Below, in pieces: positions 26,720 to 58,856 of a DNA stretch of 64,000 nt. This DNA comes from Nitrospirota bacterium (GTDB lineage: Bacteria > Nitrospirota > UBA9217): NCBI GenBank assembly GCA_963818475.1, contig CAWFSF010000006.1:192001-256000 (forward strand), given 5' to 3'. Position 1 is the first letter of the stretch. Every line of letters begins with the position of its first letter. The translations under genes were made by a program, and so were the position numbers. The notes below the pieces were generated by a model, which worked only from the letters and a program-made list of their open reading frames with translations, was not told the DNA's origin and did not search any database.

Positions 26720-26741
26720 TTAAAAGCAGCTCGATAAATGA

Positions 26742-27317: not shown

Positions 27318-27338
27318 GCTTACGATAGGTGATATTGA

Positions 27339-28013: not shown

Positions 28014-28017
28014 GAGT

Positions 28018-28062: not shown

Positions 28063-28071
28063 AGGCAACAA

Positions 28072-28437
28072 ATGAACTTAAATAAAATTCAAATAGCAAA
28101 GTATCTTTTTATAGCTAATGCAGTTCTTGTGAGTGTAGGATATGGAGCACTAGCGGGCTTGATGGCCTTTGTATACGACTCAGGACCAGGACCGCATCTA
28201 AAAGCAGCAATGACCGCCTTCTCTATTGTCTTCTTTACACTTGCAATATTTTGGTCGTTGTTTTGCTATGGGGCCTATAAAGGCATAAAAAGCAATAAAC
28301 TATATTTCAAAATCATTTTCTGGTTATTTGTAATGTGTAGCATAGTTTTAGTGGTTTTCCCGGTCGGTACAATGTTTGCTGTTGCTATAATTTACCTTTG
28401 GCGATCTATCAAAAAAGAAGAAACTACTAATGCATAA
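28072..28437 (+). CDS. Cassette 5 multi-pass membrane protein
   Basis: 121 aa, three to four hydrophobic segments. Confidence 0.75.
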   Translation: MNLNKIQIAKYLFIANAVLVSVGYGALAGLMAFVYDSGPGPHLKAAMTAFSIVFFTLAIFWSLFCYGAYKGIKSNKLYFKIIFWLFVMCSIVLVVFPVGTMFAVAIIYLWRSIKKEETTNA

Positions 28438-28444
28438 CAAGCCT

Positions 28445-28550
28445 GCCTAACAACACGTCAGAGCTGACGGGGAACACGGTCTGCTTCTCATAGAGCATTC
28501 TACCTGGGCAACCGGCGGTGGCCCGCAGCTCAACTCCCCTGGCGTTAATC
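28445..28550 (+). other. attC site 5 (long)
   Basis: GCCTAAC..GAGCTGACGGG...CCCGCAGCTC..GTTAATC, 106 bp. Confidence 0.8.
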
Positions 28551-28560
28551 CTCAACTGAA

Positions 28561-29130
28561 ATGAGGTGCATGAACATGAAGCAACCTGTATTTCTATCCA
28601 TCTTATTACTGGTGATGCTTCTCAGTAACGCATCAAAATTAAAAGCTGAGGTTCCACCCGAGAAGATACCCTGCTCTTCTATCGCCAATCTCGACCTACA
28701 AAATATCACCATTAACAATATCAAATTTGTCGATGGAGAAGCATGTACATCAGATTCCGATATAATGTCGGATTGTGATTGGGAACATGAAATATCAGGG
28801 AATGAACTTCTCAAGCCGGTCCCAGATAAAGAAGTTCGCATCATCATTATTAACTCCAACCATAAAACGGGAAGTGGAGCTTGGGACACCGTCTTAGTAT
28901 TTGATTGTATTAATGGCGCTGTGAGAAAGGTATTTGAGAATAAATACCTTTATGGTGTCAAAATCGAGAAAATTACAGATGGAGAATTCTTACTGACTTC
29001 CGGCGCGTGGCAGCCAAAAGACCCAATGTGTTGCCCCACAAAAGATAAGCATGAAAGATATCAATGGGATTCGGCTAAGGGTACATATATTCTTGAAAGT
29101 ACGACAACCTCTAAAAAGAAATTGCAATGA
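28561..29130 (+). CDS. Cassette 6 exported Cys-rich hypothetical protein
   Basis: Signal peptide; DPMCCPT...YQWD motif. Confidence 0.75.
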   Translation: MRCMNMKQPVFLSILLLVMLLSNASKLKAEVPPEKIPCSSIANLDLQNITINNIKFVDGEACTSDSDIMSDCDWEHEISGNELLKPVPDKEVRIIIINSNHKTGSGAWDTVLVFDCINGAVRKVFENKYLYGVKIEKITDGEFLLTSGAWQPKDPMCCPTKDKHERYQWDSAKGTYILESTTTSKKKLQ

Positions 29131-41252: not shown

Positions 41253-41328
41253 GGGCCGGTAGCTCAGTTGGTAGAGCACCGCCCTTTTAAGGCGGGTGTC
41301 CTGGGTTCGAGTCCCAGCCGGCTCACCA
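41253..41328 (+). tRNA. tRNA-Lys(TTT)
   Basis: CCGCC-CTTTTAA-GGCGG anticodon arm, GTTCGAGTC, CCA end. Confidence 0.95.
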
Positions 41329-41418: not shown

Positions 41419-41496
41419 GTCCCCATCGTCTAGTCCGGCCCAGGACACCGCCCTTTCACGGCGATAACGCGGGTTCGAATCCCGCTGGGGACGCCA
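41419..41496 (+). tRNA. tRNA-Glu(TTC)
   Basis: GTCCCCATCGTCTAG...CTTTCAC...GTTCGAATCC...GACGCCA. Confidence 0.95.
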
Positions 41497-41519
41497 TTCA
41501 AATTCAAAGAGTTAGCTAA

Positions 41520-41705
41520 TCAGCTAGCTCTTTTTATTTGCCCCAACGTAGCCAAAACGTAGCCACTCTCCTTAGCATCCAAGACCTTCACCGCTTCACT
41601 CAGATTTTCCGGAGTAAGATGGCAGTACCGGACAGTCATTCTCAGATCCTTGTGGCCCAGGAGATCCTTGACTGTGTTGATATCGACGCCCTCCTGGACC
41701 ACCGT
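41520..41705 (-). pseudogene. C-terminal remnant of tyrosine integrase
   Basis: GVDINTVKDLLGHKDLRMTVRYCH (box II) only. Confidence 0.85.
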
Positions 41706-41873
41706 CACAACAACGTTTTCGCATTTCCCTTGCCCGTTCCTTAAAAATGCGTTATTCTCGCATTGATTGTTTGAGAAAATAGCTTCTATAATCGAGAAGG
41801 CACTTTTGAAAAGTTCCCTACTCACTAATAAACCTCCCCCTCTTTTTTTCAAGAAATTAGAAAAGGTAGATTT

Positions 41874-43253
41874 ATGAATACTCATATTGAAAAATTAAAA
41901 ATATTTATGGCCTCTCCTGATGATTTGCAGGAAGAGAGAAAAGTCTTTGGTGAGGTTGTTGAGGCAATAAACCGTAGCAGGGGTAGCGCAGAAGGATTTC
42001 ACCTGGATGCAATAATATGGGAGAAATATGCTTATCCCGAAGCAGATACTCCACAAGCTATTGTGAATAGGGTTTTGGAAGATGCATCGTTGGTTATTGT
42101 TGCCTTTTGGAACAAATTTGGAGCACCAACAACCAATTTCCCATCTGGTACGATGGAAGAGTTTTCTTTAGCATACGAGAAACGTAATAAGACAGGAAAG
42201 CCATCAATAAAAATCTATTTTAGATTGCCTGAGTCACCCACGACTTTGGCGCAAAATGAAGAGATTCGAAAAATACTTGAATTTAAAGAGTCAATCAAGG
42301 ACAAAGCTCTTTATAAAGAATACACTTCAGCTCAAGCATTCAAAGACTTATTGCATGAGCACATAAATGCATGGCTTTCAAATGAAAAGCAAATAACAGG
42401 AGCTGTAACGGATCCAACCGCAGTAGGCGTTGCAGATCCGGATCCTGTCTGCGTCAGTAAATTAATTGGAGACTATGTAAGGGATCTAGAAAAAAAATAT
42501 GACAGGGAGAAAACCGAAAGAAGATTTTTTGGCCTAAAAAAGCTCGATTATGTGCTTGGAGAATTTAACGAGCAAAATTTAACAGTAGTAGCGGGCGAAG
42601 CTTCCAGCGGGAAAACGACATTACTTGTAACTGCTGCAAACATAGTTGCTACAGACAAAACGGTTTTATTTATATCACCGAGGTTAAATAAAAAAGAGAT
42701 TGTAGGACGACTTATCTCAAATTCATCAGTGGTGGCGTTAAATCGATTAAAAAGTGGAAATTTACAAGATCAAGATTGGACTTCATTCTCGAATGCAGCC
42801 GGAAGATTACACGAAAAGGAGATTTACATTGATGATCATTATGAACTGTCAATTCCTTATATACGCAAACTTATTTCAAAAATAATGGCAGCTCATGGTG
42901 TGCAGTTGGTAATTATTGATGGTCTTAACTACATTCTAAATGAAGATGGCAGGGTAGGCCAATCATTGAGAGTCCTGTCGCGTGAATTTAATCTTCCGAT
43001 AATCGGTGCACTTGATATTGACCTTATCTCATTGCGTGCTAAAGCGATGTCTCGCGATAAACGGCCTTGCTTACGAGATTTAGATACATTCGGTGATCTA
43101 AGATCCGAATCGGACGTGGTGATTTTTTCATTCAGGGATGTAGACGTTATTGATAATGACGAATTAATTGTGGCTAAGAACAACAATGGACCTATTGGAG
43201 CTATAAAAGTTAAGTTTTTGTCAGAATGCAATAAATTTGAAGAATTAAACTAG
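41874..43253 (+). CDS. DUF4062 domain fused to degenerate DnaB-like helicase C-terminal domain
   Basis: KIFMASPDDLQEER, SGTMEEF; GEASSGKTT, LVIID, DKRP.LRDL, ELIVAKNNNGP. Confidence 0.82.
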   Translation: MNTHIEKLKIFMASPDDLQEERKVFGEVVEAINRSRGSAEGFHLDAIIWEKYAYPEADTPQAIVNRVLEDASLVIVAFWNKFGAPTTNFPSGTMEEFSLAYEKRNKTGKPSIKIYFRLPESPTTLAQNEEIRKILEFKESIKDKALYKEYTSAQAFKDLLHEHINAWLSNEKQITGAVTDPTAVGVADPDPVCVSKLIGDYVRDLEKKYDREKTERRFFGLKKLDYVLGEFNEQNLTVVAGEASSGKTTLLVTAANIVATDKTVLFISPRLNKKEIVGRLISNSSVVALNRLKSGNLQDQDWTSFSNAAGRLHEKEIYIDDHYELSIPYIRKLISKIMAAHGVQLVIIDGLNYILNEDGRVGQSLRVLSREFNLPIIGALDIDLISLRAKAMSRDKRPCLRDLDTFGDLRSESDVVIFSFRDVDVIDNDELIVAKNNNGPIGAIKVKFLSECNKFEELN

Positions 43254-43578
43254 ACCTGGAGTTTCTATTACACAATCAGCCTTTGAATGTAATGCGATAC
43301 CATGCTGTGGTGAGAATTAGCGATGCCTACGTAAACTATTTTAGAACTTTCTGGAAAGAAATTTCATCTACGAAATTGCCGGTCCCAGACAAAGCGTAGT
43401 GTATCCTAATGATAATATGGGGAAAAGTGGCTTTAATGCTAGGCTGAAAGGTTCCACTTGACACAATCTTGACGATGGTGTATTAATTAAGTAGAAAACA
43501 CATGGGGAAGCCTGATAAATTCCTGAGTAAATTTAAAGTTTATAAAGGAATTTGGATCGCTTCCCCTTTTTTTCGTCT

Positions 43579-45372
43579 ATGTATCTTATACCTGATAAAA
43601 AATGGAATCTAACCGGTAATGAACCAGAACAATCTAAGCTATTCTTCGAATTGTGGCTGGAAAAAGTTGGTTTTGATTCTCATTTTACCTACGAGTTACC
43701 TCTTCATTCCTGCTATCAGCTGTTGAGAAATTTACAAAATATAATTCCGCTTGTAAAACAAAAGACAATTTCGCCTGAAAACATTACAGACATTATCGAA
43801 GAGATTCTCAATAGACTAGAGGGAAATATATGGCTCAATAAGTTTTACCCTAATGAAATTCAACATATCAAGACGGTACTTACTGAGGCAAAGACATCAT
43901 CCTTATATAAGGATATAACAATACAAAATAAACTTGAATTAATTCTCGAAGCCTTCCTCAATACCCTCCAAAAAGACAACATCCAGCTAAAGCAGTTGAG
44001 AGCAGTTTGTGATTTGGCTCAATCGAAACAAACTTATACAACGATTGAAAAAAATATCGATGAATTTCTGACCGACTTAATCCACGCTGGTCATTCGAAA
44101 TTATATTTGCATAAATGGGTAGTACGTGAAATTATCGAGCATCAAAAAGACCTTCTTGGTCAAAATTCTGTTGAAAAGCTCGCCGGCGCTCGTTTTTTGG
44201 GATCAATATCTACAAAATCATATAGCGTTTTGCTCAAGACCTCTGCAAATGCCAGAATTCAATCTACAGGTAATATTAAATTTGTTGAAAATAAAGAAGA
44301 CATCCCAGAAAAATTCCTTACTTTAAATTTGCCAAGTGTTAATAGTTCAACATCTAGATATGTTATTGTTGAGGTGGGAAACTCTTTAGATGTTTATGCG
44401 GCTTTTGAAGAGGCTGTAAATATTCTTACTCGGTATCTTTCTTCTGTCAGATTTCAGAAATTATCTTTTACTTCACCGGAGATATCCAGTAGCGGGATTG
44501 TGTTAGATTTATCTTCAGATACGGCGATTCAAATCGAGAATGTACCAAAATTAATTTCCCGATCAATTTTTAGCGCAGATAAATTTTACTCTATTGAAGC
44601 TAAGTCTGGGAAAAATCAAAAAACTTTTGACGCAATAGACAAGGTGCTTTACTGGTTTGAAATAGCACAAAAATCACCGGCGGAGTTAAAATTTATTAGT
44701 TTATGGACAGCACTAGAGTTTTTGTTTTCGGTCCCAGGATATAAAACTATTGACGGAATAGTTTCTTATTTACCCCCTTATTTTGGACTTGCCTATGCAA
44801 GGTCAGTTTTGAAAGATTTTGATAGGCATGTAGAGTTTGCTAATATTATATCGCCAGGAAAAATCTCAAGTGACTTAATGAAATATTGCAGCAATAAAGA
44901 CAAGAGAATGCATCCGGACTACACTAAAATGCTGTCTACATGTTGTGACGATGAAACGATAGCAGATTCTTTAAGTATACATCCAATTTTAAAAAGAAAA
45001 TTTTATAAGGTAAGGCGCCTCAATCCATCTTTCAAAACGGGCAACAGATTTACTTTGCTGAGCGATCTTGATTCTATTGAGTGCGACCTGATATTAGATG
45101 TTAAGAGATTCTATAGAACCAGAAATATGCTCGTTCATGGAGCCGAAATACAGGATCGTAATTTAGACAGAATTCTTAAAAGGATGGAGTATATGATGTC
45201 ATTTATCATAGATAAGCTTGCTGATGCTTATTATTACAACCCTAACCATTCACTTACGGCCCTACATGAAGTGTTTTATTCTAGCTATCAGTTCTATAAG
45301 AAGCGAATTGATGAAGGTAAGACTGATTTTGGAGGTACCGTTTTTCCGCGCTTATTATATAGTAAACACTAG
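43579..45372 (+). CDS. Large AT-rich protein with C-terminal HEPN-like (ApeA-like) motif
   Basis: FISLWTALEFLF and YRTRNMLVHG (RxxxxH). Confidence 0.7.
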   Translation: MYLIPDKKWNLTGNEPEQSKLFFELWLEKVGFDSHFTYELPLHSCYQLLRNLQNIIPLVKQKTISPENITDIIEEILNRLEGNIWLNKFYPNEIQHIKTVLTEAKTSSLYKDITIQNKLELILEAFLNTLQKDNIQLKQLRAVCDLAQSKQTYTTIEKNIDEFLTDLIHAGHSKLYLHKWVVREIIEHQKDLLGQNSVEKLAGARFLGSISTKSYSVLLKTSANARIQSTGNIKFVENKEDIPEKFLTLNLPSVNSSTSRYVIVEVGNSLDVYAAFEEAVNILTRYLSSVRFQKLSFTSPEISSSGIVLDLSSDTAIQIENVPKLISRSIFSADKFYSIEAKSGKNQKTFDAIDKVLYWFEIAQKSPAELKFISLWTALEFLFSVPGYKTIDGIVSYLPPYFGLAYARSVLKDFDRHVEFANIISPGKISSDLMKYCSNKDKRMHPDYTKMLSTCCDDETIADSLSIHPILKRKFYKVRRLNPSFKTGNRFTLLSDLDSIECDLILDVKRFYRTRNMLVHGAEIQDRNLDRILKRMEYMMSFIIDKLADAYYYNPNHSLTALHEVFYSSYQFYKKRIDEGKTDFGGTVFPRLLYSKH

Positions 45373-45761
45373 AATTGTAGCCACAACCTCTGATAATGAA
45401 TAGGCATAAGTCACACGCTTCAGCTTTAGCTGAGAGCGTAGCCAAAACGTAGCCGAAATTGACTTATAGGGCATAAGAGGGTAGAAAATAATGAAAGACC
45501 TGAAGGGGATATCCGTTTGAAAGTAGATAAATTCGATAAAACACAGGTAAGAGGCCCACTTACGAAAATTGATCGTTTGTGACTTTCACGCGATAACGCG
45601 GGTTCGAATCCCGCTGGGGACGCCATTAAAAAGTAAAAGAATCAGAACCTTTACGGGCCTGGTTCTTTTTATTTTTGGTACACAAGGTGGGCTCCGGGTG
45701 AAACCTGGGGCTTTTTCTTTTGGCTTGCAATATATCGGTATATGATATATATTGATATCCG

Positions 45762-46052
45762 ATGATACGGAACATAACGAGCAAGACGGCGCAGGATATC
45801 TATGACGGGGTAAACAGTCGTCATGCACGGAAGATCCCCACGGAGTTACACCGGAAAGCGCAGCGGCTCTTTGATCAGATCAACGCTGCCGTGGTGGTGG
45901 AAACCTTGAAAGCACCGCCCGGAAACAGGCTGGAGAGGTTGAAAGGCAATTGGGAAGGGTTCTGGAGTGTTCGGATAAATGACCAGTGGCGGATCATTTT
46001 CCGATGGGAAGATGCCGACGCCCTGGACGTGGATATTGTGGATTACCATTAA
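45762..46052 (+). CDS. higB: HigB-family toxin
   Basis: PPGNRLERLKG...SVRINDQWRIIFRW...VDIVDYH. Confidence 0.93.
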   Translation: MIRNITSKTAQDIYDGVNSRHARKIPTELHRKAQRLFDQINAAVVVETLKAPPGNRLERLKGNWEGFWSVRINDQWRIIFRWEDADALDVDIVDYH

Positions 46053-46065
46053 GGAGGTAGAGTAT

Positions 46066-46356
46066 ATGTTACCGAAAAAGAGACCGCCGACGCATCCGGG
46101 CGAGATGCTGCTGAAAGAGTTTCTGGAGCCGATGGGCATGACTCAGGTTGAGCTTGCAAAGCATATAGGCTGGACGTGGGCCAGGCTGAACGAGATCGTC
46201 AACGGCAGGCGCGGAGTAAGTGCGTCGTCAGCCCTTGCGCTCGGTGAGGCGTTTGGGACCGGGCCGGAATTCTGGCTGAACCTGCAGAGGGATTGGGACC
46301 TGTGGCACGCCTTGCGCAAGCATGAGCCTGTGCGGGCGCTCAAGAAGGCGAGTTGA
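46066..46356 (+). CDS. higA: HigA-family antitoxin
   Basis: PTHPGEMLLKEFL, LNEIVNGRRGV, PEFWLNLQ. Confidence 0.93.
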   Translation: MLPKKRPPTHPGEMLLKEFLEPMGMTQVELAKHIGWTWARLNEIVNGRRGVSASSALALGEAFGTGPEFWLNLQRDWDLWHALRKHEPVRALKKAS

Positions 46357-46373
46357 GTCAAAGGAAAGTTTCG

Positions 46374-46532
46374 ATGAAAAAAGAACTTTTTGATGAACTT
46401 TTAAAAAGCGTGAAGCAGGGCGGGGCGATAATGAAGCGCACCATGAAACCGGCGCGCGTATTGCTTCAAGTTGCGGCAAAACATCCGGATGCACTGCTTG
46501 ATCTTGCCGGTAACAGGAAAAAAAGGAAATAA
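46374..46532 (+). pseudogene. Internally deleted XRE-type (NadS-like) regulator/antitoxin
   Basis: MKKELFDELLKSVKQGGAIM joined directly to PARVLLQVAAKHPDALL; HTH absent. Confidence 0.6.
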
Positions 46533-46641
46533 ATATAAACGGCAAGTTGAAAAAAGCTCGTGTGTAGATCTGAGTATCATGCATTACAAGGGAAGCAGAA
46601 TCAAGCTCTACTCGTAGTATTCACGCTGAGTCGGAGAGTTT

Positions 46642-49042
46642 ATGTCCGATAAGAAATCACTTCAGCAAGCTATTGCAAAAGAAGAAGAGCGTCTTTCCAA
46701 ATTGGACAGAGAAAGGGAGCAGACGCTATTAAGAATCACTGATTTCAGACAAAAGCTTGCGTCGCTGGAAGCAGTATGCGCCGGGTCGAAAAAATTTTCC
46801 TCTACGAGAACACCTCTTGAAAAAGTGACGCTGTTTCGCTCGCTGTTTCGCGGTAGGGAGGATGTTTTTCCGAAGCTCTGGGCAAGCCGTGCCGGCAAAA
46901 AAGGCTACTCTCCTGCCTGCACGAACGACTGGATGACCGGAATCTGCGGAAAGACGCGCAAACCGCCGCTCAAATGTAGTGATTGCTCCAATCGCAAGTT
47001 CCTTCCGGTGACTGATCAGGTCATCACTGACCATCTTCAAGGGCGTCATGTCATCGGCGTCTACCCCATGCTCCCGGACGACACCTGCTGGTTTCTCGCC
47101 GCCGACTTCGATAAGGAATCATGGATTGACGATATCAGCGCATTACGTGAAACCTGTTCTAATTTAAAAATACCCGTGGCTGTCGAACGATCGCGGTCAG
47201 GAAATGGAGCTCATGCCTGGCTCTTCTTTACCGAACCTGTTCCGGCCACGACTGCACGGACTTTGGGATGTTTTTTGATCACGGAAACGATGAGCCGGAG
47301 ACATCAACTCAGCATGGAGTCCTATGACCGTTTGTTCCCCAGTCAGGATACTCTGGTCCAAGGCCGGTTTCGGGAATCTGATCGCTGCCGCTTCAGCAGG
47401 AGCCACGTCAAAAAGGCAATTCGGTTTTTCTCGATGAACACTTGACTCCTTACGAAGATCAATGGACATATCTTGCAGCGATCGGGCGGATGATCGCCGG
47501 AGGTGGTTCAACGTATTGCATCTGAGGCTATACGTCTTGATACCGTGATAGGGGTGCAACGAGATATCAGCCAGGATGGAGACGACCTTACTCCCTGGAG
47601 CCGGTTGCCGTCGCGAAAAACACCGAAAGGGAAGATCACCGGAAAGTTTCCTTCAGAAACATATTGTGTCTTCGCACAACGTCTTTTCATCGAAAAAAAG
47701 GATTTACCTTCGCCTTTTCTGACGCGCATCAAACAATTGGCTGCATTTCAGAATCCAATGTTCTACGAAAAGCAGAACTTGCGCCTTTCAACTGCCCGAA
47801 TCCCGCGAGTGATCTCCTGCTATGAAGAACATCCTGAGCATATCGCCGTCCCGAGAGGCTGTCTTGAAGGTCTTCGGCAACTCTTTGCAGAACATGACGT
47901 CAAGCTTCTGCTCGATGACAAGCGCATTTCCCCCGCTGGACCATCGTATACGTTCCATGGAACATTGAGAGAAAAGCAGCATGAGGCCATCGACCGGATT
48001 CTCGAACACGACCTCGGGGTCCTCTCGGCGCCGCCGGGATTTGGCAAGACCGTTATCGGCGCGTATCTTATTGCAAAACGAGGCACCAGCACGCTTGTGC
48101 TCGTTCATCGGAAGGAGCTTCTGGATCAATGGGTCGCGCGACTTTCCTTGTTTCTTGGGATTGATCCGAAAGAAATCGGCAGGATCGGGGCAGGCAAAGA
48201 ACAAACCGAACGGGATATTGGATGTCGCCATGATCCAGAGTCTGGTCCGGAAGGATGAAGTCAACGATATCGTTGACGGCTATGGTCAGGTTATTGTTGA
48301 TGAGTGCCATCATCTGCCGGCTGTTTCTTTTGAGCGAGTTCTGAACGAGATCAAAGCACGATATGTTGTCGGCTTGACCGCAACACCCTATCGGCGAGAC
48401 GGGCACCAGCCGATCATTCACATGCAGTGCGGACCTGTCCGTTTTTCCGTGCATCCGAGAAGCCAGGAGGCAAGAACTCAGTTCAAACACAAATTAATCT
48501 GTAAAACTACGAATTTCAGTGTGCACGATCCCGATGCATCGATTCAGGAAATATTTGCCGCCCTTGTTGCAAATAAGAAGCGGAATGCTCTTATTCTTGC
48601 TGATGTCCGGCAGGCCATCCAGGAGGGACGGTCGCCGGTGCTTCTGACCGATCGGAAAGAACATCTGGATATACTTGCGGATGAGTTGCGAAGCGATGTA
48701 CAGCATCTCATCGTACTCAGCGGCAGGCTGTCTGCCAAAGAACGGCGTGAAACAATGAAGAGGCTTGCAGCAATACCCGATAATGAAGTACGCCTTATCG
48801 CGGCAACGGGCCGTTACCTTGGTGAAGGTTTCGACGATCCGCGACTCGATACGCTCTTCCTTGCCATGCCTTTTTCCTGGAAGGGAACGATTGTACAGTA
48901 TGCGGGACGGATTCACCGGGAACATCCGGGAAAGCTGGAAGTCCGGGTGCACGACTATGTCGACGCCAATGTACCCAAGCTTCTGCGAATGCAAAAAAAA
49001 AGATTGCGAGGTTTTCGGGATATCGGATATATGGCAGATTGA
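46642..49042 (+). CDS. AEP primase fused to SF2 helicase, TOTE-conflict-system-like (frameshifted)
   Basis: LAADFD, ERSRSGNGAH, DRLFPSQD; PPGFGKT, DECHH, LTATP, QYAGRIHR. Confidence 0.85.
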
Positions 49043-49300
49043 ACAATCAAGGTCAACTGCGCGAATTGGACGAAATATAACAGCGGATCACTGTAGTAGA
49101 ACTGTAGTAGAATTTTGCACAATGACCGGAAACCGCAGAATCTACGGAATGTACAGAATCAGTATTTCCTATGTTTTTAAAAACTTAGCTCAAAACCGTT
49201 GTTTGTCGCCCACTTACAAAATGTGTTCCAATAGTCTTTCACGGCGATAACGCGGGTTCGAATCCCGCTGGGGACGCCATTAAAAAAAAAGAATCAGACC

Positions 49301-51213
49301 GTTCGCAGTAACAACTGATTATCTCGCGGGTTCAAGTCCCGCCCAAGGAGTTGTCCGTACACCTTGGTAGCACGAGGGAGCGGCGTCTGAGCAATCAGAG
49401 GTCGTGAGTTCCCAAACGGCAAAGCTACAGGCCGCAGCGAAAGCGAACCTACACGTAGCCTCGTAACTTATTCGGAGATGCCGACCTTGTGGTCAAATGG
49501 GGAAGGCCGATGCGCGCTGATTCAGACAACGGAATCGATCTGTGCGATCTCCCGGGGTAGCAGGGGCGGCATGCAGCGGAAGATAAGCAGTCCAGTGCTG
49601 GAGACCCCATACAGTGATGTTAGAGGAACATCAACCGGTGCGTATAAGGAAACGAAAACGCACTGGGCTGTATCGGGAGTCGGAGGGGTCCATAGTATCG
49701 TTTGAAGGTATGGGACAACATAACCCTGCCCAAGAAAAGGGACCCTGCTTTGTTCACGCAACCGAAGGAGAGAGGATGAGGGGATTGCAGAGATGCTAAC
49801 AACCCCAGATACAATCAGGACACTCCAGAGGAAGCTCTACCGTAAGGCCAAGCAAGAACCGGCCTACCGCTTTTACGCGCTCTACGACAAGATACACCGG
49901 GCCGACATCCTCAGTCACGCCTACCATCTTGTCAGGGCCAACAAAGGAAGCGCCGGCATCGACGGCGTCACCTTCGAGGCCATAGAGACCGGAGAAGGGG
50001 TAATCGCCTTTTTGGCGGAGCTGCAAGAAGCACTGAAGAGCAAGACCTATGCACCAAACCCTGTAAAGCGCGTCATGATCCCCAAAGGAGACGGCACAGA
50101 GCGTCCCTTGGGAATCCCGACCATTAGGGACAGGGTGGCCCAGATGGCCGTAAAACTGGTCATCGAACCGATATTTGAAGCGGATTTTATAGACACCTCA
50201 TACGGATTCAGACCCAAGAAGTCGGCCCATGATGCAATCGAAGACATATCGTATGCCCTTAACTGCGGTTATACGGAAGTCATCGACGCCGATGTGTCCA
50301 GGTACTTCGACACCATTCCCCATGCCAAACTCATGGCCGTGGTCGCCGAGCGCATCGTTGACAGTGCGATTCTGCACATTATCCAGATGTGGCTCAAGGC
50401 CCCGGTTATGGAAGTGGACAAGGACGGAACGAAGCGCAACATCGGCGGCGGCAAGGCAAACACCAAAGGAACACCGCAGGGCGGTGTCATCTCGCCGCTC
50501 CTGGCCAATCTCTATCTGCACCTGTTAGATAGGATATGGCATAAGAAGAAGCTTCAGTATAGGCTCGAAGCGCGTCTTGTCCGGTATGCCGACGATTTTG
50601 TCGTGCTGTGCAGAAAGGGAACTGAGCAGCCGATGGCGGTTGTGCGCCGGGTGCTCGAACGACTGGGACTTGTACTCAATGAGAACAAGACCCGCATGGT
50701 GAACGCCAAGCAAGAAGGCTTCAACTTCCTTGGATTTGAACTTCGTATGGGGAAAAGTCGGAGAACGGGCAACCTTTACCCCCTTATACAACCGTCACGA
50801 AAAGCCCTGAAGAAGATCAAAGACAGCGTTACCGCTCTTACACACAGGCGGATGACGCCGAAGCCGCTTACTATGATAATCGAAGATATCAATACCGCCC
50901 TCCGGGGCTGGGTCGGGTACTTTCATTACCGCAATAGCAGCAAGGCGTTCAATCGTCTCAAGTTTCATGTGGAAGCGCGAGTGCGCACGCATCTGCGAAA
51001 GCGGCATAAGATCAAAAGCAGGGCAGCGGGGTTTACCAGGTTCACCAACAGGTCTTTGTACGAGAAGTATGGGCTCTATAAAGTGCCGACGACAGCGGGC
51101 TGGCTGAAGGCGCATGCCTTGCGGTGAAGAACATCGGAAAGCCGTGTGCGGGAAAACTGCATGCACGGTTTGATGAGGGAGGGCTGGTCAATACGACCAG
51201 CTCTCTACTCTAC
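49301..51213 (+). mobile_element. Group II intron
   Basis: 5' GTTCG; domain V AAGCCGTGTGCGGGAAAACTGCATGCACGGTTT; domain VI ending CTCTAC; removal restores a sequence matching 45637-45684. Confidence 0.9.
49793..51127 (+). CDS. ltrA: Group II intron reverse transcriptase/maturase, no endonuclease domain
   Basis: RPLGIPTIRDR, SYGFRP, GTPQGGVISPLLAN, RYADD, FLGF, RGWVGYF. Confidence 0.95.
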   Translation: MLTTPDTIRTLQRKLYRKAKQEPAYRFYALYDKIHRADILSHAYHLVRANKGSAGIDGVTFEAIETGEGVIAFLAELQEALKSKTYAPNPVKRVMIPKGDGTERPLGIPTIRDRVAQMAVKLVIEPIFEADFIDTSYGFRPKKSAHDAIEDISYALNCGYTEVIDADVSRYFDTIPHAKLMAVVAERIVDSAILHIIQMWLKAPVMEVDKDGTKRNIGGGKANTKGTPQGGVISPLLANLYLHLLDRIWHKKKLQYRLEARLVRYADDFVVLCRKGTEQPMAVVRRVLERLGLVLNENKTRMVNAKQEGFNFLGFELRMGKSRRTGNLYPLIQPSRKALKKIKDSVTALTHRRMTPKPLTMIIEDINTALRGWVGYFHYRNSSKAFNRLKFHVEARVRTHLRKRHKIKSRAAGFTRFTNRSLYEKYGLYKVPTTAGWLKAHALR

Positions 51214-52225: not shown

Positions 52226-52441
52226 TATCCATTTATGCCTTTATTCCGTATAATCACTGTGAACGTGATCCTATAAATACAGGTACGTCATGGTCGTTAG
52301 CATAATTTCTGCGGAATGGCCTTCACATCACTACCTTCCTTGTTCTTTGACATAGCTGTCTGGTCGGCGTGCAACCAGCTTGGGGCCTGTACGTCGAAGC
52401 CGGTCACAACATACGTAGTCAATCAATAGAAAATAAATTTC

Positions 52442-52469
52442 TTGACAATAAAATATACACTCGTATACT
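52442..52469 (+). promoter_or_regulatory. Sigma70-type promoter upstream of TonB receptor gene
   Basis: TTGACA-16bp-TATACT. Confidence 0.6.
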
Positions 52470-52601
52470 TTTGCCACTTTAAACCGTCGCTTGTGGTCGT
52501 TTAACAAAATTGCAAATAAAGCAGGTGATCATGATGACTTCACGTTTTTCACATCGTCGCCATATCGCTACGACAGACGCATCGACCCTGAGGGCAAAGA
52601 A

Positions 52602-54477
52602 ATGATGCTACTTATCCGCCTGTCCTACATCTTCTTTATCTTTGTCAACTTGATGGTCCTGTTCCGATCCTCCGCCTCCGCCCAGTCGACCGAAGAGAAA
52701 GACTTTCTCCTGATGTACTTCAAGGAAGAGGAACTGGTCGTGGAAGCGCCGACGCGGGCAAGAAAATCCCTGGCCCAGACCGCGGAGAACGTGTCCGTGG
52801 TCACGGCCGACGAGATCAGGTTCATGAACGCCCATACAGCAGCCGAGGTGCTGAACACGGTGACGGGCGTGCAGGTCTTCCTGACGGGAGGTCCCGGCAG
52901 CAGCGCGACGGCGTTCATCCAGGGCTCGGGGAGCCGGCATGTGGCAGTCTTCATCGACGGCGTCCCGCTGAACAACCTTTCCGATAACGCGGCCGAGCTC
53001 GGGTCGCTCCCGGTCCAGAATATCGAGAAGATCGAGATCATCAAGGGACCGGCGTCGTCCGCCTGGGGATCAGCTCTCGGCGGTGTGATCAACATCATTA
53101 CCAAGGCGGGGCAGGACGAGGGGTTCGGCGGCGTGCTGTCGGCTTCATCAGGAAAGCATGATACGGGTGACTTCCGGGCCGAGGCATCGGGTAAAAAGGT
53201 GGGCGTGGGCTATTACCTTACTGCCGGCCGACTGCAAACCGACGGCTTTCGGCCACACAACGACTTCTCGGGGAACAATGCCTACGCGAAGCTGAGCTAT
53301 GATATCACGGGCGCTACGTCAGTAATTGCCACGGTGAGCTATGACAAGGTCGCGCGAGGGACTTGCTGAACTGCCCGATTTCGGCATCTTCGTGAACGAC
53401 GACATCAAGGCCGTGCGGTCCACCGTAACGTTTCGATCGTCCCTCTCCGAGAACACTGACCTGCATTTTACTGCCTGGCACCTGCGCCAGCACAGCGACT
53501 TCAGCAACATGCTCATCTCTTCGGGAGCGGAACTTTCAAAGGACCGTTATCTCGATGATGGATACGGCGGGAGCCTCAAGCTGACATGGAAAAGGCAGCA
53601 TCACAACATCGTTCTCGGCGGCGACTATGACTCCAGGATGTTGGACTCGAACGCCATCGCCGATAACAGGCAGGGGATCGATAAACAGGCTGCTTTTGTA
53701 AATGATACGATGTCTTTCGGCAGCCTGACTATCACCCCGGGCCTGCGGTATGATAAAACAGACACGAACGGTGATTTCACGAGCCCGAGCCTCGGAATGA
53801 TCTACCGGATCACGGAGACCACCTTACTGCGTGCGTATGCTGCCCGGGGATTCAGTGTGCCGGCGCTTGCGGGCACCTATGGAGATAATCTCTTTCATGT
53901 TTCCAATCCCGATCTGAAGATGGAAAATGTCAAGTCCTACCAGATAGGCGCGGAAACCACTGTTGAGAAGTATCTCTGGGTCAAAGTGTCGGGATTCAGG
54001 CACGATCTTGACGATGTTCTCGAGAACGTGGCGCTTTCCCCTATATCGTTCATTACGTTGAACACCGGCAGGGAAAGACGGGAAGGGTTGGAGGTCGAGC
54101 TCCGAACAGCTCCTGTCTACCATACAACGCTTAATGCCGGCGCGTCGTTCATCAGCGCGACGGACAGGGACACGGGCCAGACGATCAAGAGCGTGGCACA
54201 AAGGACCTATGACATAGGCTTGCAGTACGATGGAGACTCGTTCAAGGCGCTGGTGAAGGGGCATTATATCTACTGGAACACGGACAAGTTCTTTGAAGGG
54301 AAGTACGACGATTTTATCGTGGATGCCCATATTATGAAGACCCTGTATACGCGGAATGAGCACTCGCTTGAAGCCTTTGCCGATGTTCACAATCTCTTCG
54401 ATGACGAGCAATATCCAGCGGGTATATATAAGAACCCCGGGAGATGGTTCGAGGCAGGGGTTAGATATGTTTTTTGA
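52602..54477 (+). CDS. TonB-dependent outer-membrane receptor (one frameshift)
   Basis: Plug NVSVVTADEI..VFIDGVP..IEKIEIIKGPAS..GGVINIITK; barrel ending HNLFD..GRWFEAGVRYVF. Confidence 0.93.
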
Positions 54478-54522
54478 TCCATAACACAAAGAAGTCAACT
54501 ACTCTAGGGGGGAGGAAAGAGC

Positions 54523-54624
54523 ATGAAAAACCGGATTGTTGTGCTGAATAAGGGTGTTGAGAAAAAGCAGGTGGTAGAAGGACTCTGCTGTATGGGAGCA
54601 TACATCCCTTATCTGTGGATGTAG
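54523..54624 (+). CDS. Putative RiPP precursor peptide, geopeptide-like, 33 aa (not in ORF track)
   Basis: GGAGG RBS; MKNRIVVLNKGVEKKQVVEGLCCMGAYIPYLWM; CC motif; directly upstream of radical SAM gene. Confidence 0.85.
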   Translation: MKNRIVVLNKGVEKKQVVEGLCCMGAYIPYLWM

Positions 54625-54635
54625 GCTGAGCTTTC

Positions 54636-54666
54636 GAGGGAGAGCGCTCCGCTCTCCCTCTTTTTT
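54636..54666 (+). terminator. Intrinsic terminator between precursor and maturase
   Basis: GAGGGAGAGC-GCTCC-GCTCTCCCTC followed by T6. Confidence 0.88.
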
Positions 54667-54702
54667 ATTTCTCATGAAGAAAGGCATCATTCACGGCTGC
54701 TG

Positions 54703-55992
54703 ATGAAATTATCTCGTTATTCCAAGACCTATCCTTCCCCGGAAGACCCTGATTCGGTCATTCTGTTCTCCACCAAGCGCGCCTCGACGGTTCTCGTCCC
54801 GAAGGGCCTCCTTGCGGACATCGAGGCGGGCAGGCTTTCCGGGGAGGAGCAGGCAGATCTTGCGGAGCTGGGCCTCGTGGCGCGCAGCGACGAGGAGGAA
54901 CGGCAGGAGCTGCTTTCCTATATCCAGGACATGAACGCCCTGGACCGGTCCATGAAGTTCATCGTCGTCCTGAACCTGGACTGCAACCTCGCCTGCCGCT
55001 ACTGCTTCGAAGGCGTCCGGAAAGGAAAACACTATCTTTCCGACGAGGCGGCGGCACGGTTCGTCGATTTCGTCATGACCCGCGACTACACGAACAAGGA
55101 TGATATCAAGATCGTCTTCTATGGCGGCGAGCCGCTCCTGTCCGTGGACCGGATCGCCGGCATCTCGGAACAGATCAAGACCTTTGCCGAAGGCAGGGGG
55201 ATGCGGTATGTCTTTTCCCTCGTGACCAACGGCGTGTTGTTGACCCCACAGGTAGTGAAGCGTCTCCAGCCCCTTGGCTTGAGAAGCGCCAAAGTGACGC
55301 TGGATGGACCGAAAGAGGTCCACGATGCGTTCCGGCCCTTCAGGAACGGCGCGGGGTCTTTCGACACGATCATGCGGAACGTGGGCGACGTGTCCAGTCT
55401 GATCCGTGTCCAGATCGGCGGCAACTTCACTCAGGATAACTATCGCCAATTCCCCCGCCTTCTGGACCTCCTGATGGAGAGGGGACTCGGCCCGGCCCGG
55501 ATCGCGGCGGTCAAGTTCGATCCCGTGGTCAACGAAAGCAGCGAGTTTGCCCTCCCGGACTTCCACGACGGGTGTGCTTCCATGGATGAGCCTTGGGTCG
55601 CCATGGCCTCGTTGCAGCTGCGCGAGGAAGTGCTGAAACGCGGGTACCAGACACCGAAGATCATGCCCTCGCCCTGCCTGATGGAACATGACGACAGCTT
55701 TGTCGTGAACTATGACGGCATCCTGTACAAGTGCCCCGGCCTGATCGGCAGGCAAGGCTGCCGCGCCGGCGATCTGGCGAGCGGACCGGGGGAATGCCGC
55801 GCGTCCCACGGGCTCGACGACTGGAAGAACGACGACTGCCTGGCTTGTGCCTATCTGCCGCTCTGCTTCGGGGGCTGCAAATACCTCAAGCTCGCCAGAG
55901 AGAACAGCATGAGGGGCGTTAATTGCCAAAAAAAGTATTTCGACCGGATCCTCGCGGCACTGGTGGCCCAGGACATCCGGTACGGGCTGTAG
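54703..55992 (+). CDS. Radical SAM/SPASM peptide maturase, geopeptide-maturase-like
   Basis: CNLACRYC, FYGGEP, SPASM C..G.LYKC..CLACAYLPLCFGGC..C; RRE-sized N-terminus. Confidence 0.9.
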   Translation: MKLSRYSKTYPSPEDPDSVILFSTKRASTVLVPKGLLADIEAGRLSGEEQADLAELGLVARSDEEERQELLSYIQDMNALDRSMKFIVVLNLDCNLACRYCFEGVRKGKHYLSDEAAARFVDFVMTRDYTNKDDIKIVFYGGEPLLSVDRIAGISEQIKTFAEGRGMRYVFSLVTNGVLLTPQVVKRLQPLGLRSAKVTLDGPKEVHDAFRPFRNGAGSFDTIMRNVGDVSSLIRVQIGGNFTQDNYRQFPRLLDLLMERGLGPARIAAVKFDPVVNESSEFALPDFHDGCASMDEPWVAMASLQLREEVLKRGYQTPKIMPSPCLMEHDDSFVVNYDGILYKCPGLIGRQGCRAGDLASGPGECRASHGLDDWKNDDCLACAYLPLCFGGCKYLKLARENSMRGVNCQKKYFDRILAALVAQDIRYGL

Positions 55993-56005
55993 TCCCGGTC
56001 ACTCC

Positions 56006-56938
56006 ATGATTACGCGCTTCTCTTTCATAGTAAAACCCGACAAGGCCTTCCTGGTCTTCCTCGTCCTGCTGGCCGCGCTTGCGGTCTTTGTCCTTGCGTG
56101 CCCTCTTCCTGCATCGTCCGCATGCGAGACAACTGTCGTCGTGAGCGCTGACCTAAAGCCCTATCGGGAGGTCCTCCAGGGTATCCGCGATGCTTCCGTC
56201 TGCACCGTGCGGGAGGTGACGTTGCGCGACGGCGACGCCCTGGAACGGGTGCGGCGGACATCGCCCAATGCCGTGGTCGCCATCGGGACCGACGCTTTCC
56301 GGACGGTCCGGCCGTTCCGGGACGCGCCGGTCGTCCATGTCATGGTGATCCCCTCCGTGGTCGAGCGCTCCCCGTCGGCAAACCTGTCGGGAGTGAGCAT
56401 GAGCATCGCTCCCGAGGCATGGCTGTCGGCGATCAAGCGCATGTTCCCCGGCGCGAAGCGGATCGGGCTGCTCTTCGATCCCCGGAATACGGGCCCCTTC
56501 GTCTCCGAGGCGGTGCTAGCCGCTCAGGCTGCCGGGCTGACGCTGAAAACGGCGGAGGTCAGTGGGGCAGATGAGGTTCCGAAGGCGCTGAACTCTCTCC
56601 GCGACTCGGTTGACGTGCTCTGGATGCTGCCGGATCCCGCAGTGACGTCGGCGCCGGTATTCGAGTATCTTGTCCGCTTCTCCATCCAGCATCGCATTCC
56701 CATCATGACCTTTTCAGAAAAATACCTGGAACTGGGCGCCGTGGCGTCGCTGGACGTGGACCCCTATGACATGGGCGTCCAGGCCGCGGAAATGGCGGCC
56801 CGGCTCGCGAGGGGCGGGGACGGGCCCGTGCGCGTCTTCGCGCGGAAAACGAAGCTCTCGTTCAACCGGAGCGCGGCGGGGAAGATGGGGGTCGTGATCG
56901 GCGCGGCGGTTTCTGAGAGGGGCCTTGCCGATGAATAG
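56006..56938 (+). CDS. Periplasmic ABC-type substrate-binding protein without transporter genes
   Basis: Signal peptide; KRIGLLFDP, VDVLWMLPD, MGVQAAEMA. Confidence 0.85.
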   Translation: MITRFSFIVKPDKAFLVFLVLLAALAVFVLACPLPASSACETTVVVSADLKPYREVLQGIRDASVCTVREVTLRDGDALERVRRTSPNAVVAIGTDAFRTVRPFRDAPVVHVMVIPSVVERSPSANLSGVSMSIAPEAWLSAIKRMFPGAKRIGLLFDPRNTGPFVSEAVLAAQAAGLTLKTAEVSGADEVPKALNSLRDSVDVLWMLPDPAVTSAPVFEYLVRFSIQHRIPIMTFSEKYLELGAVASLDVDPYDMGVQAAEMAARLARGGDGPVRVFARKTKLSFNRSAAGKMGVVIGAAVSERGLADE

Positions 56939-58856
56939 CTTCAGAATGGTCCTCAAGGAGCGATTCGGACTCAAGGTCATTACGGCATTCATTATCGTCA
57001 TCGCTGCGTCCTTCACCCTCTATACGGTCGTCTGGGCGGTCTATGAGATCGGCAGGCTCAGGCACAAGCTCGAGGACCAGGGTATCATGCTGACATCGCT
57101 CCTCGCGCGGGGGGCCGTGGTGGGCATCTTCACGGAGAACGAGGCGGAGCTCAAGCGGTCGGCGGCGGATGTCCTGAAGCTGCCCGACGTGGTGTCCGTG
57201 TCGCTGTTCAATGCAGAAGGACGGATGCTCTACCGGGGCAGCAGAATGGTCGGACGGCCCGGTCCCGGGACGTTGCCGGAGCGAAATGCACCGGGTCCGC
57301 CGGCTGGCACGGAGTTGGAGATCGCGGACCAGGCGGACGCGGTCAGTATCTCCCGGCCAGTCTTCAGCGCGTCTCTAGCCGATACGGATGAAACGCTGTA
57401 TTTCGGCTCGTCGACCGGTCTCGCGCGGGAGCGGATGATCGGTCATGTCCTGATCGTGATGAGCAAGGACAGCTACCGCAGCGAGATCGTCGCGCTCGTG
57501 GGAAGGAATTTGGGATTGATGGCGCTGTTCATCGCGGTAAGCGGCATTGTCGTGTGGGGCGCGGTCCGCAAGGTCACGCGTCCGCTCGAGCGGCTGACCG
57601 AGAGCGTAAGGGACTTCGAACGGGGGGTGCCGGTGGAGCCGGCGCCAGTCGAGACCGGAGACGAAATCGGAAGGCTGGCATCGGCATTCAACGACATGGT
57701 CGCGGCACGGCGGAAAACGGAGCTGTCCCTGCGCGAGAGCGAGGAGCGCTACCGGCGGCTTGTCGAACTCTCCCCGGACGCGATCTACGTGCAGCTTGAG
57801 GGAAGGATCGTCTTCATCAATAATGCGGGCGCGAGACTGCTGGGGGTGTCCGCTCCCGCGGACATCCTGGACCGGAAGGTCCTGGACCGCATTCATGAGG
57901 AAGACCACGAGACCGTCGTGAAACGGGCACTACAGGTCGAGGAAGAGGGGCGCGTCGTCACCTTCCTCCCGGTCAGGTATCTCCAGCCCGGCGGGACGGT
58001 CGTGGATGCCGAAGTGGCCGCCGCGCCCTTCCCGTTCCAGGGCAAGAGCGCCGTGCTGGTCATGGCCCGCGATATCACGGAGCGCAAGAGCCTGGAGGAG
58101 CTGGTCAGAGCATACCAGCGGGAACTGCATTCCGTGGAAAACGCAATGTCCTCGCTGGAATCGCAGATCGAGGAACGGGAGCGGCATCTTATTGCAGCGG
58201 ACCTGCATGATCATGTCGGCCAGAACCTGGTGGCGTCGCTGTTCAAATTGGGGCTCATGCAAAAGGGGATTTCTGCGCCCGGCGCGCTCAGGCACCTGGA
58301 GGAGATCCGCGATCTTCTCGGCCAGACCATCCAGTATACGAGGTCGTTGACTGTCGAACTCAGCCCGCCGGTCCTGTCGGAGATCGGTTTCAAGGCCGCG
58401 GTGGAGTCCCTGGCGGAGGGAATCGAAGCGGCTTACGGAATAACGGTCGCCGTCGAGGATGACGGCAGGTCCGATCTGATCGGCGAAAACGTCCGGAACC
58501 CGCTCTTCCGGTGCGTGCGCGAGCTGCTCATGAACGCCGTCAAACATTCCCGGGCGAGCGGCGTCGTGGTCTCCCTGGGAAGGGACAACGACCGGATAAG
58601 AATTACCGTTGTTGATAACGGGACGGGGTTCGATGCATCGGCGGTAACCGGGAAAAAGTCGGGGTTCGGGCTGTTCTCTGTCAGGGAGCGGATAAAGAGG
58701 CTGGGCGGCTCGTGCAGGATCGAAAGCCGGCCGGGGTCCGGAACAAAGGTTGTCCTGGAGGCGCCCTTGAAAGAGGACGTACAAGATAAAAATCTCGGGA
58801 GGGGCGCACCGGAAACAGGACAGGTCTTCGACAGGATAACAGGATCGACAGGATAA
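56925..58856 (+). CDS. Membrane sensor histidine kinase (HAMP-PAS-HisKA_3)
   Basis: Two TMs, DEIGRLASAFN, ESEERYR..PDAI, ERHLIAADLHD, DNGTGF, GFGL. Confidence 0.93.
   Translation: MPMNSFRMVLKERFGLKVITAFIIVIAASFTLYTVVWAVYEIGRLRHKLEDQGIMLTSLLARGAVVGIFTENEAELKRSAADVLKLPDVVSVSLFNAEGRMLYRGSRMVGRPGPGTLPERNAPGPPAGTELEIADQADAVSISRPVFSASLADTDETLYFGSSTGLARERMIGHVLIVMSKDSYRSEIVALVGRNLGLMALFIAVSGIVVWGAVRKVTRPLERLTESVRDFERGVPVEPAPVETGDEIGRLASAFNDMVAARRKTELSLRESEERYRRLVELSPDAIYVQLEGRIVFINNAGARLLGVSAPADILDRKVLDRIHEEDHETVVKRALQVEEEGRVVTFLPVRYLQPGGTVVDAEVAAAPFPFQGKSAVLVMARDITERKSLEELVRAYQRELHSVENAMSSLESQIEERERHLIAADLHDHVGQNLVASLFKLGLMQKGISAPGALRHLEEIRDLLGQTIQYTRSLTVELSPPVLSEIGFKAAVESLAEGIEAAYGITVAVEDDGRSDLIGENVRNPLFRCVRELLMNAVKHSRASGVVVSLGRDNDRIRITVVDNGTGFDASAVTGKKSGFGLFSVRERIKRLGGSCRIESRPGSGTKVVLEAPLKEDVQDKNLGRGAPETGQVFDRITGSTG

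Follow-up and report, generated by a model that had tools for sequence, protein, structure and literature searches.

The gene described here lies in a 64,000-nucleotide stretch of DNA, hereafter the window, from a Nitrospirota bacterium (assembly GCA_963818475.1, contig CAWFSF010000006.1, positions 192,001 to 256,000). An open reading frame (ORF) at 41874-43253 on the + strand encodes a protein of 459 amino acids, exactly where an earlier note on this DNA had placed it, and an AAGG-type ribosome-binding site lies a few bases 5' of its ATG. The protein joins an N-terminal DUF4062 domain (also named NIR) to a DnaB-type linker helix and a degenerate DnaB_C domain of the RecA fold, and the gene lies in a small mobile islet next to a tRNA-Glu gene (Table 1). 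We consider it probable that the product is a single-gene, abortive-infection-type anti-phage NADase (an enzyme that hydrolyses NAD+), in which a pseudo-helicase ring would be the assembly platform and probably also the sensor. The novelty is the pseudo-helicase auxiliary module, as DUF4062/NIR defence systems themselves have already been described.

The N-terminal domain is related to a large group of proteins. Positions 5-207 of the 906-position PADLOC model PDC-S60 match residues 8-209 of the fusion protein (E 4.5e-33). With residues 1-210 as the query, phmmer found 8,288 relatives at E<=1e-3 and 4,290 at E<=1e-10 among 1.84 billion representative proteins; those listed are 174-1,115 amino acids long and carry the domain mostly at the N-terminus. 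PF13271 (DUF4062) is matched by 79 of 87 proteins from the top of this list, and the partner domains among these nearest relatives include NACHT and TPR (6), FGE-sulfatase (4), TIR_2 (3) and HEAT (3). By tblastn the domain was also located on plasmids (159 records), in many cases with a DUF4062 annotation. Residues E21, Q61, G83, G92 and E96 are invariant in the 87-row alignment of the N-domain; E96 and Q61 are also invariant, and W49 nearly so in both cases, when a 53-row alignment is considered. E96 closes the SGTMEE motif at residues 91-96, and the SGTxEE signature reported in the earlier note is therefore present. F11 is nearly invariant in the family alignment, being Phe in 13 of the 13 family rows that cover the position.

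When the N-domain was refolded by AlphaFold2 from the 53-row alignment, the model displayed a five-strand β-α repeat with a predicted local distance difference test score (pLDDT) of 90.9 and a predicted template modelling score (pTM) of 0.79. Comparison of this model with 48,161 chains by VIA-align placed TIR domains at the top: TIRAP (9fqm_B; Z 12.9, root-mean-square deviation (rmsd) 3.1, 139 residues aligned), MAL (Z 12.7), the RPS4 TIR (Z 11.9, rmsd 3.5, 139 aligned), TIR-STING (Z 11.7) and the SARM1 TIR (Z 10.9, rmsd 3.5, 131 aligned). MilB and nucleoside 2-deoxyribosyltransferases scored Z 11.1-11.6 (7o62_A: Z 11.2, rmsd 3.0, 123 aligned). A Foldseek search with the same domain was weak, mixing TIR with flavodoxin-like folds at E about 3e-4, and VIA-align gave the clearer result. 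The statement in the earlier note that DUF4062 resembles both TIR domains and nucleoside deoxyribosyltransferases is thus borne out by the model, which matches the former at Z 11-13 and the latter at Z about 11. The PDC-S60 match, the PF13271 matches of the nearest relatives and the TIR-like model together secure membership of DUF4062 beyond what the Pfam score of the domain itself, considered below, would allow.

Three preprints of 2026, cited here for their main texts, describe DUF4062 proteins as anti-phage effectors. Osinski et al. (bioRxiv 2026) report that DUF4062 is a TIR-like NADase and that Swarozyc is activated by the phage portal. Ibarra-Chavez et al. (bioRxiv 2026) describe Evangelion as a DUF4062 core, with the motifs F11, E87-Y88 and Q/W/E, followed by an auxiliary region that is needed for defence. 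Le Mouellic et al. (bioRxiv 2026) rename the domain NIR, find it in about 8.7% of genomes with enrichment near defence genes, and present Avs2-NIR, Vulcan (NIR plus HEAT, E98) and Vesta (E103). NADase activity and Glu-dependent defence are reported in these texts for KpSwz (E97A construct), Vulcan (E98), VstA (E103) and Eva01 (E87). F11, the Q/W/E motifs and the catalytic Glu of the fusion protein agree with the motifs described for Evangelion. The earlier reading of the N-domain as an effector is consistent with these reports and with the presence of the catalytic Glu. The domain is a DUF4062/TIR-like effector domain that retains its catalytic residue, E96, and by analogy is likely to be an NADase.

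The remainder of the protein resembles DnaB. Pfam DnaB_C covers residues 220-457 (E 1.1e-43), and a full-length Foldseek search from the first structure model, informative for the DnaB part only, matched the linker helix and C-domain to the DnaB structures 2r6a, 4esv, 6kza and 9oa1 (E about 1e-19 to 1e-20; 6kza_B 7.1e-20). Canonical DnaBs align to the profile of the fusion family from about residue 177, that is from the linker helix on. PF00772, the primase-binding N-domain that the canonical DnaB matches carry, is absent from the Pfam scan of the fusion protein, whose N-terminus folds TIR-like, and all NCBIfam DnaB models score far under their cut-offs (best TIGR00665, 144.6 versus 385.25 bits). 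In a HMMER alignment to Geobacillus DnaB (2vye, 2r6a; E about 1e-27) GKT is kept, SLEM has become SPRL, DYLQL DGLNY, SQLSR LDIDLISLR, DLRESG DLDTFG and AKQRNG AKNNNG. On alignment numbering, the changed or kept positions are E241, R381, K418 and R420 of the Geobacillus protein, which we take to be the catalytic Glu, the DNA-loop Arg, the trans-acting Lys and the arginine finger, respectively.

The motif states were checked against Geobacillus DnaB and against canonical DnaBs from the searches, and were then counted in an alignment of 15 family members and four canonical DnaBs. All four canonical proteins have the catalytic Glu, the RESG Arg, the arginine finger and the H3 Gln. In the family the catalytic Glu position is Arg (12), Lys (2) or His (1) and never Glu, and the RESG Arg position is Asp (12), Asn (1), Ala (1) or Lys (1) and never Arg. 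Arg is found at the arginine-finger position only in P0015, the states recorded for the others being six Lys, two Asn, three Pro, one Thr and one Tyr, while the H3 Gln is kept in six of the 15. All 15 members retain GKT, the Asp of Walker B, K435 and W302. The earlier note had described a dead helicase that keeps Walker A and B, lacks a primase-binding N-domain, and has lost the catalytic Glu (FSLEM to ISPRL), the RESG motif (to DTFG), the arginine finger (KQRNG to KNNNG) and the H3 Gln (LSQL to ALDI). Each of these points stands for the protein in the window, which has GKT and D349 in Walker A and B and R270, D404 and N437 at the positions of the catalytic Glu, the RESG Arg and the arginine finger; the loss of the H3 Gln holds for only some members of the family. 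On these motif states and family-wide counts, the DnaB-like part no longer reads as a working replicative helicase. The family members are only 37-60% identical yet share many invariant positions, which indicates that the domain is under purifying selection and is not decaying neutrally.

The fusion family is rare, and in the collections searched its named relatives are all Nitrospirota. A word-indexed search returned 35 proteins, of which 18, including the query, are fusion-family members or fragments, the rest being canonical DnaBs with PF00772. A pattern scan of one genome per species, covering 185,579 species, found five loci, all in metagenome-assembled genomes (MAGs) named Nitrospirae, Nitrospiraceae or Thermodesulfovibrionales. 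Among 401 sampled genomes of the phylum the family profile has a full-length match in four, that of the window included; the other matches cover only positions about 177-457, corresponding to canonical DnaB from the linker helix. Five other genomes of the same genus (completeness 65-92%) contain no full-length member and give only a DnaB-level match.

The genome itself encodes a canonical DnaB elsewhere (352.8 bits) as well as a DciA loader. The C-domain of the fusion protein is 29% identical to this DnaB and 27-32% identical to the other host-phylum DnaBs compared. In the tree all fusion-family rows (16/16) form one clade with support 100/100 and a stem length of 1.17, outside the host-phylum DnaB clade. 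The identity and the tree position together led us to reject an origin as a recent copy of the host dnaB. The canonical dnaB (L006, G000:C6:497341-498096) is itself unusual, lying in an open frame of 695 amino acids against the usual 450 or so, with a DnaB_C match that extends no further than position 241 of the 255 in the profile; the frame may contain an intein or some other insertion.

A search with residues 215-459 only returned 112 proteins, comprising family members, canonical DnaBs with fragments, and a metagenomic protein of 442 amino acids, P0274. This protein has TIR_2 at residues 6-127 (E 4.5e-19) and DnaB_C at 186-420 (E 1.8e-38). Like the fusion family, P0274 combines an NADase-type N-domain, a linker helix and a degenerate DnaB_C domain with Arg at the catalytic Glu position; Gly occupies the positions of the H3 Gln and the RESG Arg, Ser that of the arginine finger, and the DW and AKN motifs are kept with the linker helix. 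P0274 differs from the family in having a canonical TIR effector instead of DUF4062 and in the loss of Walker A (GKT to DRT). The branch of P0274 is very long (2.84) and its placement in the tree is not resolved, so a shared origin with the fusion family is unsupported. The attachment of an NADase-type domain to a catalytically degenerate DnaB domain exists in at least two forms.

The neighbourhoods of the five homologue loci have no conserved operon partner in common, and about half of them are defence-island-like. L001 is flanked by an AAA_14-DUF4143 ATPase and a SIMPL protein; L002 has a dCTP-deaminase-like gene upstream and a fusion of TIR_2 to a periplasmic binding protein downstream. Near L003 are MacB/HlyD, a DUF1156 fragment and an insertion sequence transposase, and near L004 are ORF6N, DUF6557, an AMP-binding enzyme and an inositol monophosphatase. 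At L005 (L005:6181-6687), in a Nitrospiraceae MAG, a DUF4062 domain 62% identical to that of the fusion protein stands alone in an ORF of 168 amino acids between a Schlafen AlbA_2 gene and AbiEi/AbiEii. This short ORF represents a member of the family that has been truncated, or else an NIR protein that occurs by itself. None of the five loci lies in a replication module, and primase, loader and origin genes are absent beside the homologues. The earlier note had named homologues in replication modules with intact catalytic residues as evidence that would tell against its proposal, and neither feature was seen in the five loci or the 15-row alignment. The context is that of biological conflict, as had been proposed: a mobile islet, variable regions and, often, defence or toxin-antitoxin neighbours.

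The capacity of the DnaB-like part to self-assemble was explored by complex prediction with three copies of residues 185-459, compared with three controls. The three-copy prediction scored 0.55 against 0.00 for the best control; of the reference cases, 20 of 30 solved pairs and one of 23 single chains scored as high. Three complex runs share at least 85% of contacts, with a partner pLDDT of at least 79, and in the predicted interface the linker helix (residues 186-209) of one copy docks on residues 265-337 of the next, which is the DnaB mode. From these models we infer that the C-terminal part forms a ring or spiral which binds nucleotide, is impaired in hydrolysis and arranges the NADase domains at the N-terminus. 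In DnaB itself the N-terminal collar consists of three dimers. On a ring of the DnaB type, a collar built from DUF4062 domains would be geometrically plausible because of this arrangement and because KpSwz dimers are reported to build tetramers and hexamers (Osinski et al.).

In the mechanism that we propose, the N-terminal TIR-like domain (E96) would be the effector, hydrolysing NAD+ on activation, and the DnaB-derived linker helix and RecA-fold domain would replace the auxiliary region of Swarozyc and Evangelion, or the STAND NTPase of PDC-S60 and Avs2-type proteins. The DnaB-like domain would still bind nucleotide, as suggested by the invariant Walker A, Walker B and K435, and would retain subunit-to-subunit assembly through the linker helix. 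Canonical ATP hydrolysis would have been lost (Glu to Arg, Lys or His, with the arginine finger gone), as would the holding of single-stranded DNA (ssDNA) by the pore loop (Arg to Asp). The pseudo-helicase ring would then determine how the NADase domains are spaced and paired, and these domains would be turned on when the ring changes its assembly or conformation in a phage-dependent way. The analysis establishes the identity of the domains, the residue states and their conservation across the family, the setting in a mobile islet and the absence of a conserved partner; that the protein cleaves NAD+, forms rings in cells, protects against phages and responds to a trigger is what we infer.

The fusion protein shares with Swarozyc (KpSwz) and Evangelion (Eva01), as described in the main texts of the preprints, an N-terminal, TIR-like DUF4062 core in which the catalytic Glu falls around residue 87-97 and position 11 is aromatic, and which has the Q/W/E motifs, together with a single-gene organisation on a mobile element and a C-terminal region in the auxiliary place, which in those systems is required for sensing. 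Their auxiliary regions are reported to be without recognisable domains, in contrast to the DnaB linker helix and degenerate RecA domain found here. The layout of effector plus NTPase is that of PDC-S60, of NIR-Avs2 and of other DUF4062 proteins resembling nucleotide-binding leucine-rich repeat receptors (NLRs). However, PDC-S60 proper (P0089, 909 amino acids, 1059 bits over model positions 4-905) consists of DUF4062, nSTAND_NTPase4 and a long C-terminal region, whereas the fusion protein matches only positions 5-207 of the model and has a RecA-fold DnaB domain in place of the rest, with no repeat sensor. Vulcan, which is reported to be activated by a small phage protein and to deplete NAD+, likewise has an N-terminal NIR fused directly to a C-terminal module; that module consists of HEAT repeats, and no HEAT was detected in the Pfam scan of the fusion protein. 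Replicative DnaB has in common with the fusion protein the linker helix and C-domain fold, Walker A and B, K435 (K418 in Geobacillus) and the Trp of the determinant helix, and differs from it in possessing the primase-binding N-domain and in the three residues, catalytic Glu, RESG Arg and arginine finger, that are replaced here.

The literature contains, as far as it was searched, no description of a DnaB-fused effector or of a DnaB-based defence decoy, in agreement with the earlier note, whose author knew of no system with a DUF4062-DnaB architecture. The words 'DnaB' and 'helicase' have no occurrence in the main texts of the three DUF4062 preprints (figures and supplements lying outside this scope), and DnaB, DUF4062, PF03796 and PF13271 have none in PMC13069673. 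The passages on DnaB in a jumbo-phage paper describe no effector-DnaB fusion, and PDC-S60 was not found by name in the literature. DUF4062/NIR domains have only just been presented, in the preprints of 2026, as NADase effectors mounted on many sensor modules. The fusion family would add a module of another nature, a helicase ring that appears to keep nucleotide binding and self-assembly and to lack catalysis and the DNA-loop arginine. If this ring is only a scaffold, a DnaB-type RecA-fold ring would stand where other DUF4062 proteins have a STAND NTPase.

Plant integrated-decoy NLRs are immune proteins that carry a non-functional copy of a host protein targeted by pathogens. By the same logic, the dead DnaB domain could mimic the host helicase, so that phage loaders or DnaB inhibitors bind its linker helix-determinant helix (LH-DH) module and this binding, or a distortion of the ring, activates the NADase. 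This is the alternative that the earlier note had favoured, and we regard it as rather unlikely in that form. The LH-DH module of DnaB serves as the docking site for the loaders DciA, DnaC and phage lambda P (PMC9912922), and a conserved Trp lies on its determinant helix (Cargemel et al.); a further phage protein, Ped1, is reported to bind DnaB (PMC13728149). The fusion protein thus contains a homologue of a phage-targeted host protein whose native catalytic residues are lost. W302, the DH-helix Trp, is present in 15 of 15 family members alongside the linker helix, and the predicted inter-subunit contact would rebuild the LH-DH module. Because the DW motif is invariant and the module is rebuilt in the model, the protein has probably retained a loader-binding site; its catalytic and DNA-loop residues have been lost. 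A decoy would be expected to show this combination. The host uses DciA, and P0274 retains the linker helix and DW despite the loss of its Walker A. However, the LH-DH module would be needed equally for self-assembly alone. The resemblance to the host's own helicase and to those of its phylum is low (29% and 27-32% identity), and the clade lies outside theirs. That Walker A and B do not vary points to a switch actively driven by nucleotide, as opposed to a passive bait. A variant with a similarly small chance of being correct is that the pseudo-helicase has kept only those features by which a loader or a phage protein that hijacks DnaB would recognise it, the nucleotide-bound ring with its LH-DH modules; a phage loader or inhibitor that prised open or distorted this ring, as it would the DnaB of the host, would reposition the NADase domains, which then fire, and P0274 would be a second guard of this type. 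The parallel with the plant receptors is limited in that the DnaB domain may equally be an oligomerisation engine and the binding of a phage factor is hypothetical here. Should the decoy proposal prove true, the family would be a bacterial counterpart of these receptors, and takeover of the replicative helicase would be a phage activity that bacteria guard.

Rings of the DnaB fold bind ssDNA. It could be imagined that the NADase is activated when the DnaB-like ring is loaded onto ssDNA, forks or intermediates of recombination from a phage; the retention of Walker A and B would fit this. Such a role would parallel that of Eva01, for which Ibarra-Chavez et al. propose the sensing of intermediates linked to replication and report a preference for recombination-like DNA, with escapers that map to phage recombination genes. 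A nucleic-acid sensor is nevertheless improbable. The Arg of the RESG loop, a DNA contact in Geobacillus DnaB (R381), is Asp in 12 of 15 members and Arg in none, a reversal of charge; the catalytic Glu and arginine finger required for translocation are lost; and the collar formed by the primase-binding N-domain is missing. Least credible of all is a gene with no part in defence, whether a helicase that replicates or maintains the integrative islet or a functionless gene in decay, for although the gene lies in an integrase-bearing tRNA islet and NCBIfam does contain island-type DnaB models (the SPI-7 type matching weakly, at 99.5 versus 655 bits), the residues that define a helicase are lost across a family in which many others are invariant under apparent purifying selection, the replication genes named above accompany no homologue, and the N-domain is of the TIR-like effector type.

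Several observations weigh against the anti-phage NADase that we favour. The Pfam DUF4062 match, over residues 9-100, reaches only 21 bits (E 4e-4) where the gathering score is 24.7, and in the first full-length structure model the N-domain had a pLDDT of only about 50-60. The complex prediction may owe its score to DnaB structures that the model had already learned. The retention of the H3 Gln in 6/15 members, with Lys at the arginine-finger position in 6/15, makes a residual or non-canonical ATPase possible. PADLOC has no model for the DUF4062-DnaB_C architecture, and the surroundings of L003 (MacB/HlyD) and L004 (inositol monophosphatase, AMP-binding enzyme) are not defence-like.

The fusion gene is set in DNA of GC content 0.35-0.38 over 42-45 kb, compared with about 0.61 in the flanks, with tRNA-Lys and tRNA-Glu genes just upstream and 42-nucleotide repeats on either side, so that the AT-rich tRNA island of the earlier note is confirmed. 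An exact 25-mer of the tRNA-Glu 3' end has three matches where none is expected by chance. The islet delimited by the first two copies is 4.1 kb and holds an integrase remnant, the fusion gene and a 606-amino-acid orphan ORF. The remnant matches Pfam Phage_integrase at E 5.6e-6 and 26.7 bits against a cut-off of 27.1, over profile positions 141-170 of 172. Because a third exact copy of the 25-mer lies at 49255, there are two islets in tandem. In G230, a genome of the same genus, the purA-tRNA-Glu region (92% identical) joins almost directly to sequence corresponding to window positions 52420-59777; since the site is empty there, about 10.9 kb is an insertion in the present genome. In G135 housekeeping-type genes follow the tRNA-Glu, with no other defence cargo at that site.

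Table 1. Features of the fusion gene and of the islets at the tRNA-Glu gene (positions in the window)
Feature	Position	Strand	Remarks
tRNA-Lys	41253-41328		ARAGORN
tRNA-Glu (ttc), integration target	41419..41496	+	ARAGORN
Left 42-nt direct repeat, tRNA-Glu 3' end, attL-like	41461..41502	+	Exact 25-mer at 41472
Tyrosine integrase remnant, 121-aa ORF	41520..41885	-	Only C-terminal box (residues 63-92) matches
DUF4062/NIR - linker helix - degenerate DnaB_C fusion gene, 459 aa	41874..43253	+	
DUF4062/NIR TIR-like domain (aa 4-176)	41883..42401	+	F11, W49, Q61, SGTMEE 91-96; E96 invariant
DnaB-type linker helix (aa 186-209)	42429..42500	+	Predicted docking on neighbouring subunit
DnaB_C RecA-fold domain (aa 220-457)	42531..43244	+	GKT 246-248, W302, Walker B D349, K435 present; R270 at catalytic Glu, D404 at RESG Arg, N437 at Arg finger
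606-aa orphan ORF, islet 1	43552..45372	+	Weak HEPN lead; not a conserved partner
Right 42-nt direct repeat, 98% identical, attR-like, end of islet 1	45590..45631	+	
Third exact copy of tRNA-Glu 3' 25-mer, end of second tandem islet	49255..49279	+	

A scan for promoters and terminators was not above chance (14 promoter-like sites versus 12.7 expected); one promoter-like site, at 41763-41792, scored 10/12. The fusion gene is found in three DNA sequencing runs, at small shares (0.06-0.15), and in no run recorded as RNA, which is neutral for any reading of its function.

The 606-amino-acid ORF was considered as a conserved partner of the fusion gene and rejected, since tblastn against the five homologue loci found nothing. 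A search of 5.8 billion clustered proteins found no relative of it, and at normal thresholds it is without a match in Pfam, PADLOC or NCBIfam. The HEPN motif has the form Rx4H, and the string RNMLVH near the C-terminus of the ORF fits it. A sub-threshold HEPN_Swt1 match covers residues 519-552 (E 0.028), and the nearest Pfam-bearing atlas clusters carry HEPN_Apea (scores 0.85-0.87), which is a lead only. The ORF may encode an independent, ApeA-like RNase defence gene.

Islet 1 also contains an exact 18-nucleotide direct repeat, one copy lying in the integrase remnant (41547-41564) and the other at 45437-45454, 136 nucleotides before the right att-like repeat. The second islet, at 45632-49254 and bounded by copies of the tRNA-Glu 3' end, carries a HigB/HigA pair at 45762-46356 as well as a primase of the TOTE conflict system (AEP-TOTE, E 9.7e-76). 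After the primase comes a superfamily 2 (SF2) helicase that is split between an ORF at 47503-48258 and an overlapping one at 47981-49042, as would result from a frameshift or from an error in sequencing. Past the third tRNA-Glu repeat, and within the roughly 10.9 kb absent from G230, a 444-amino-acid ORF at 49793-51127 (+) appears by eye to be a group II intron reverse transcriptase/maturase. Elsewhere in the window, a low-GC stretch at 26001-29000 (0.40-0.42, in surroundings of about 0.55-0.6) may also have been acquired by horizontal transfer.

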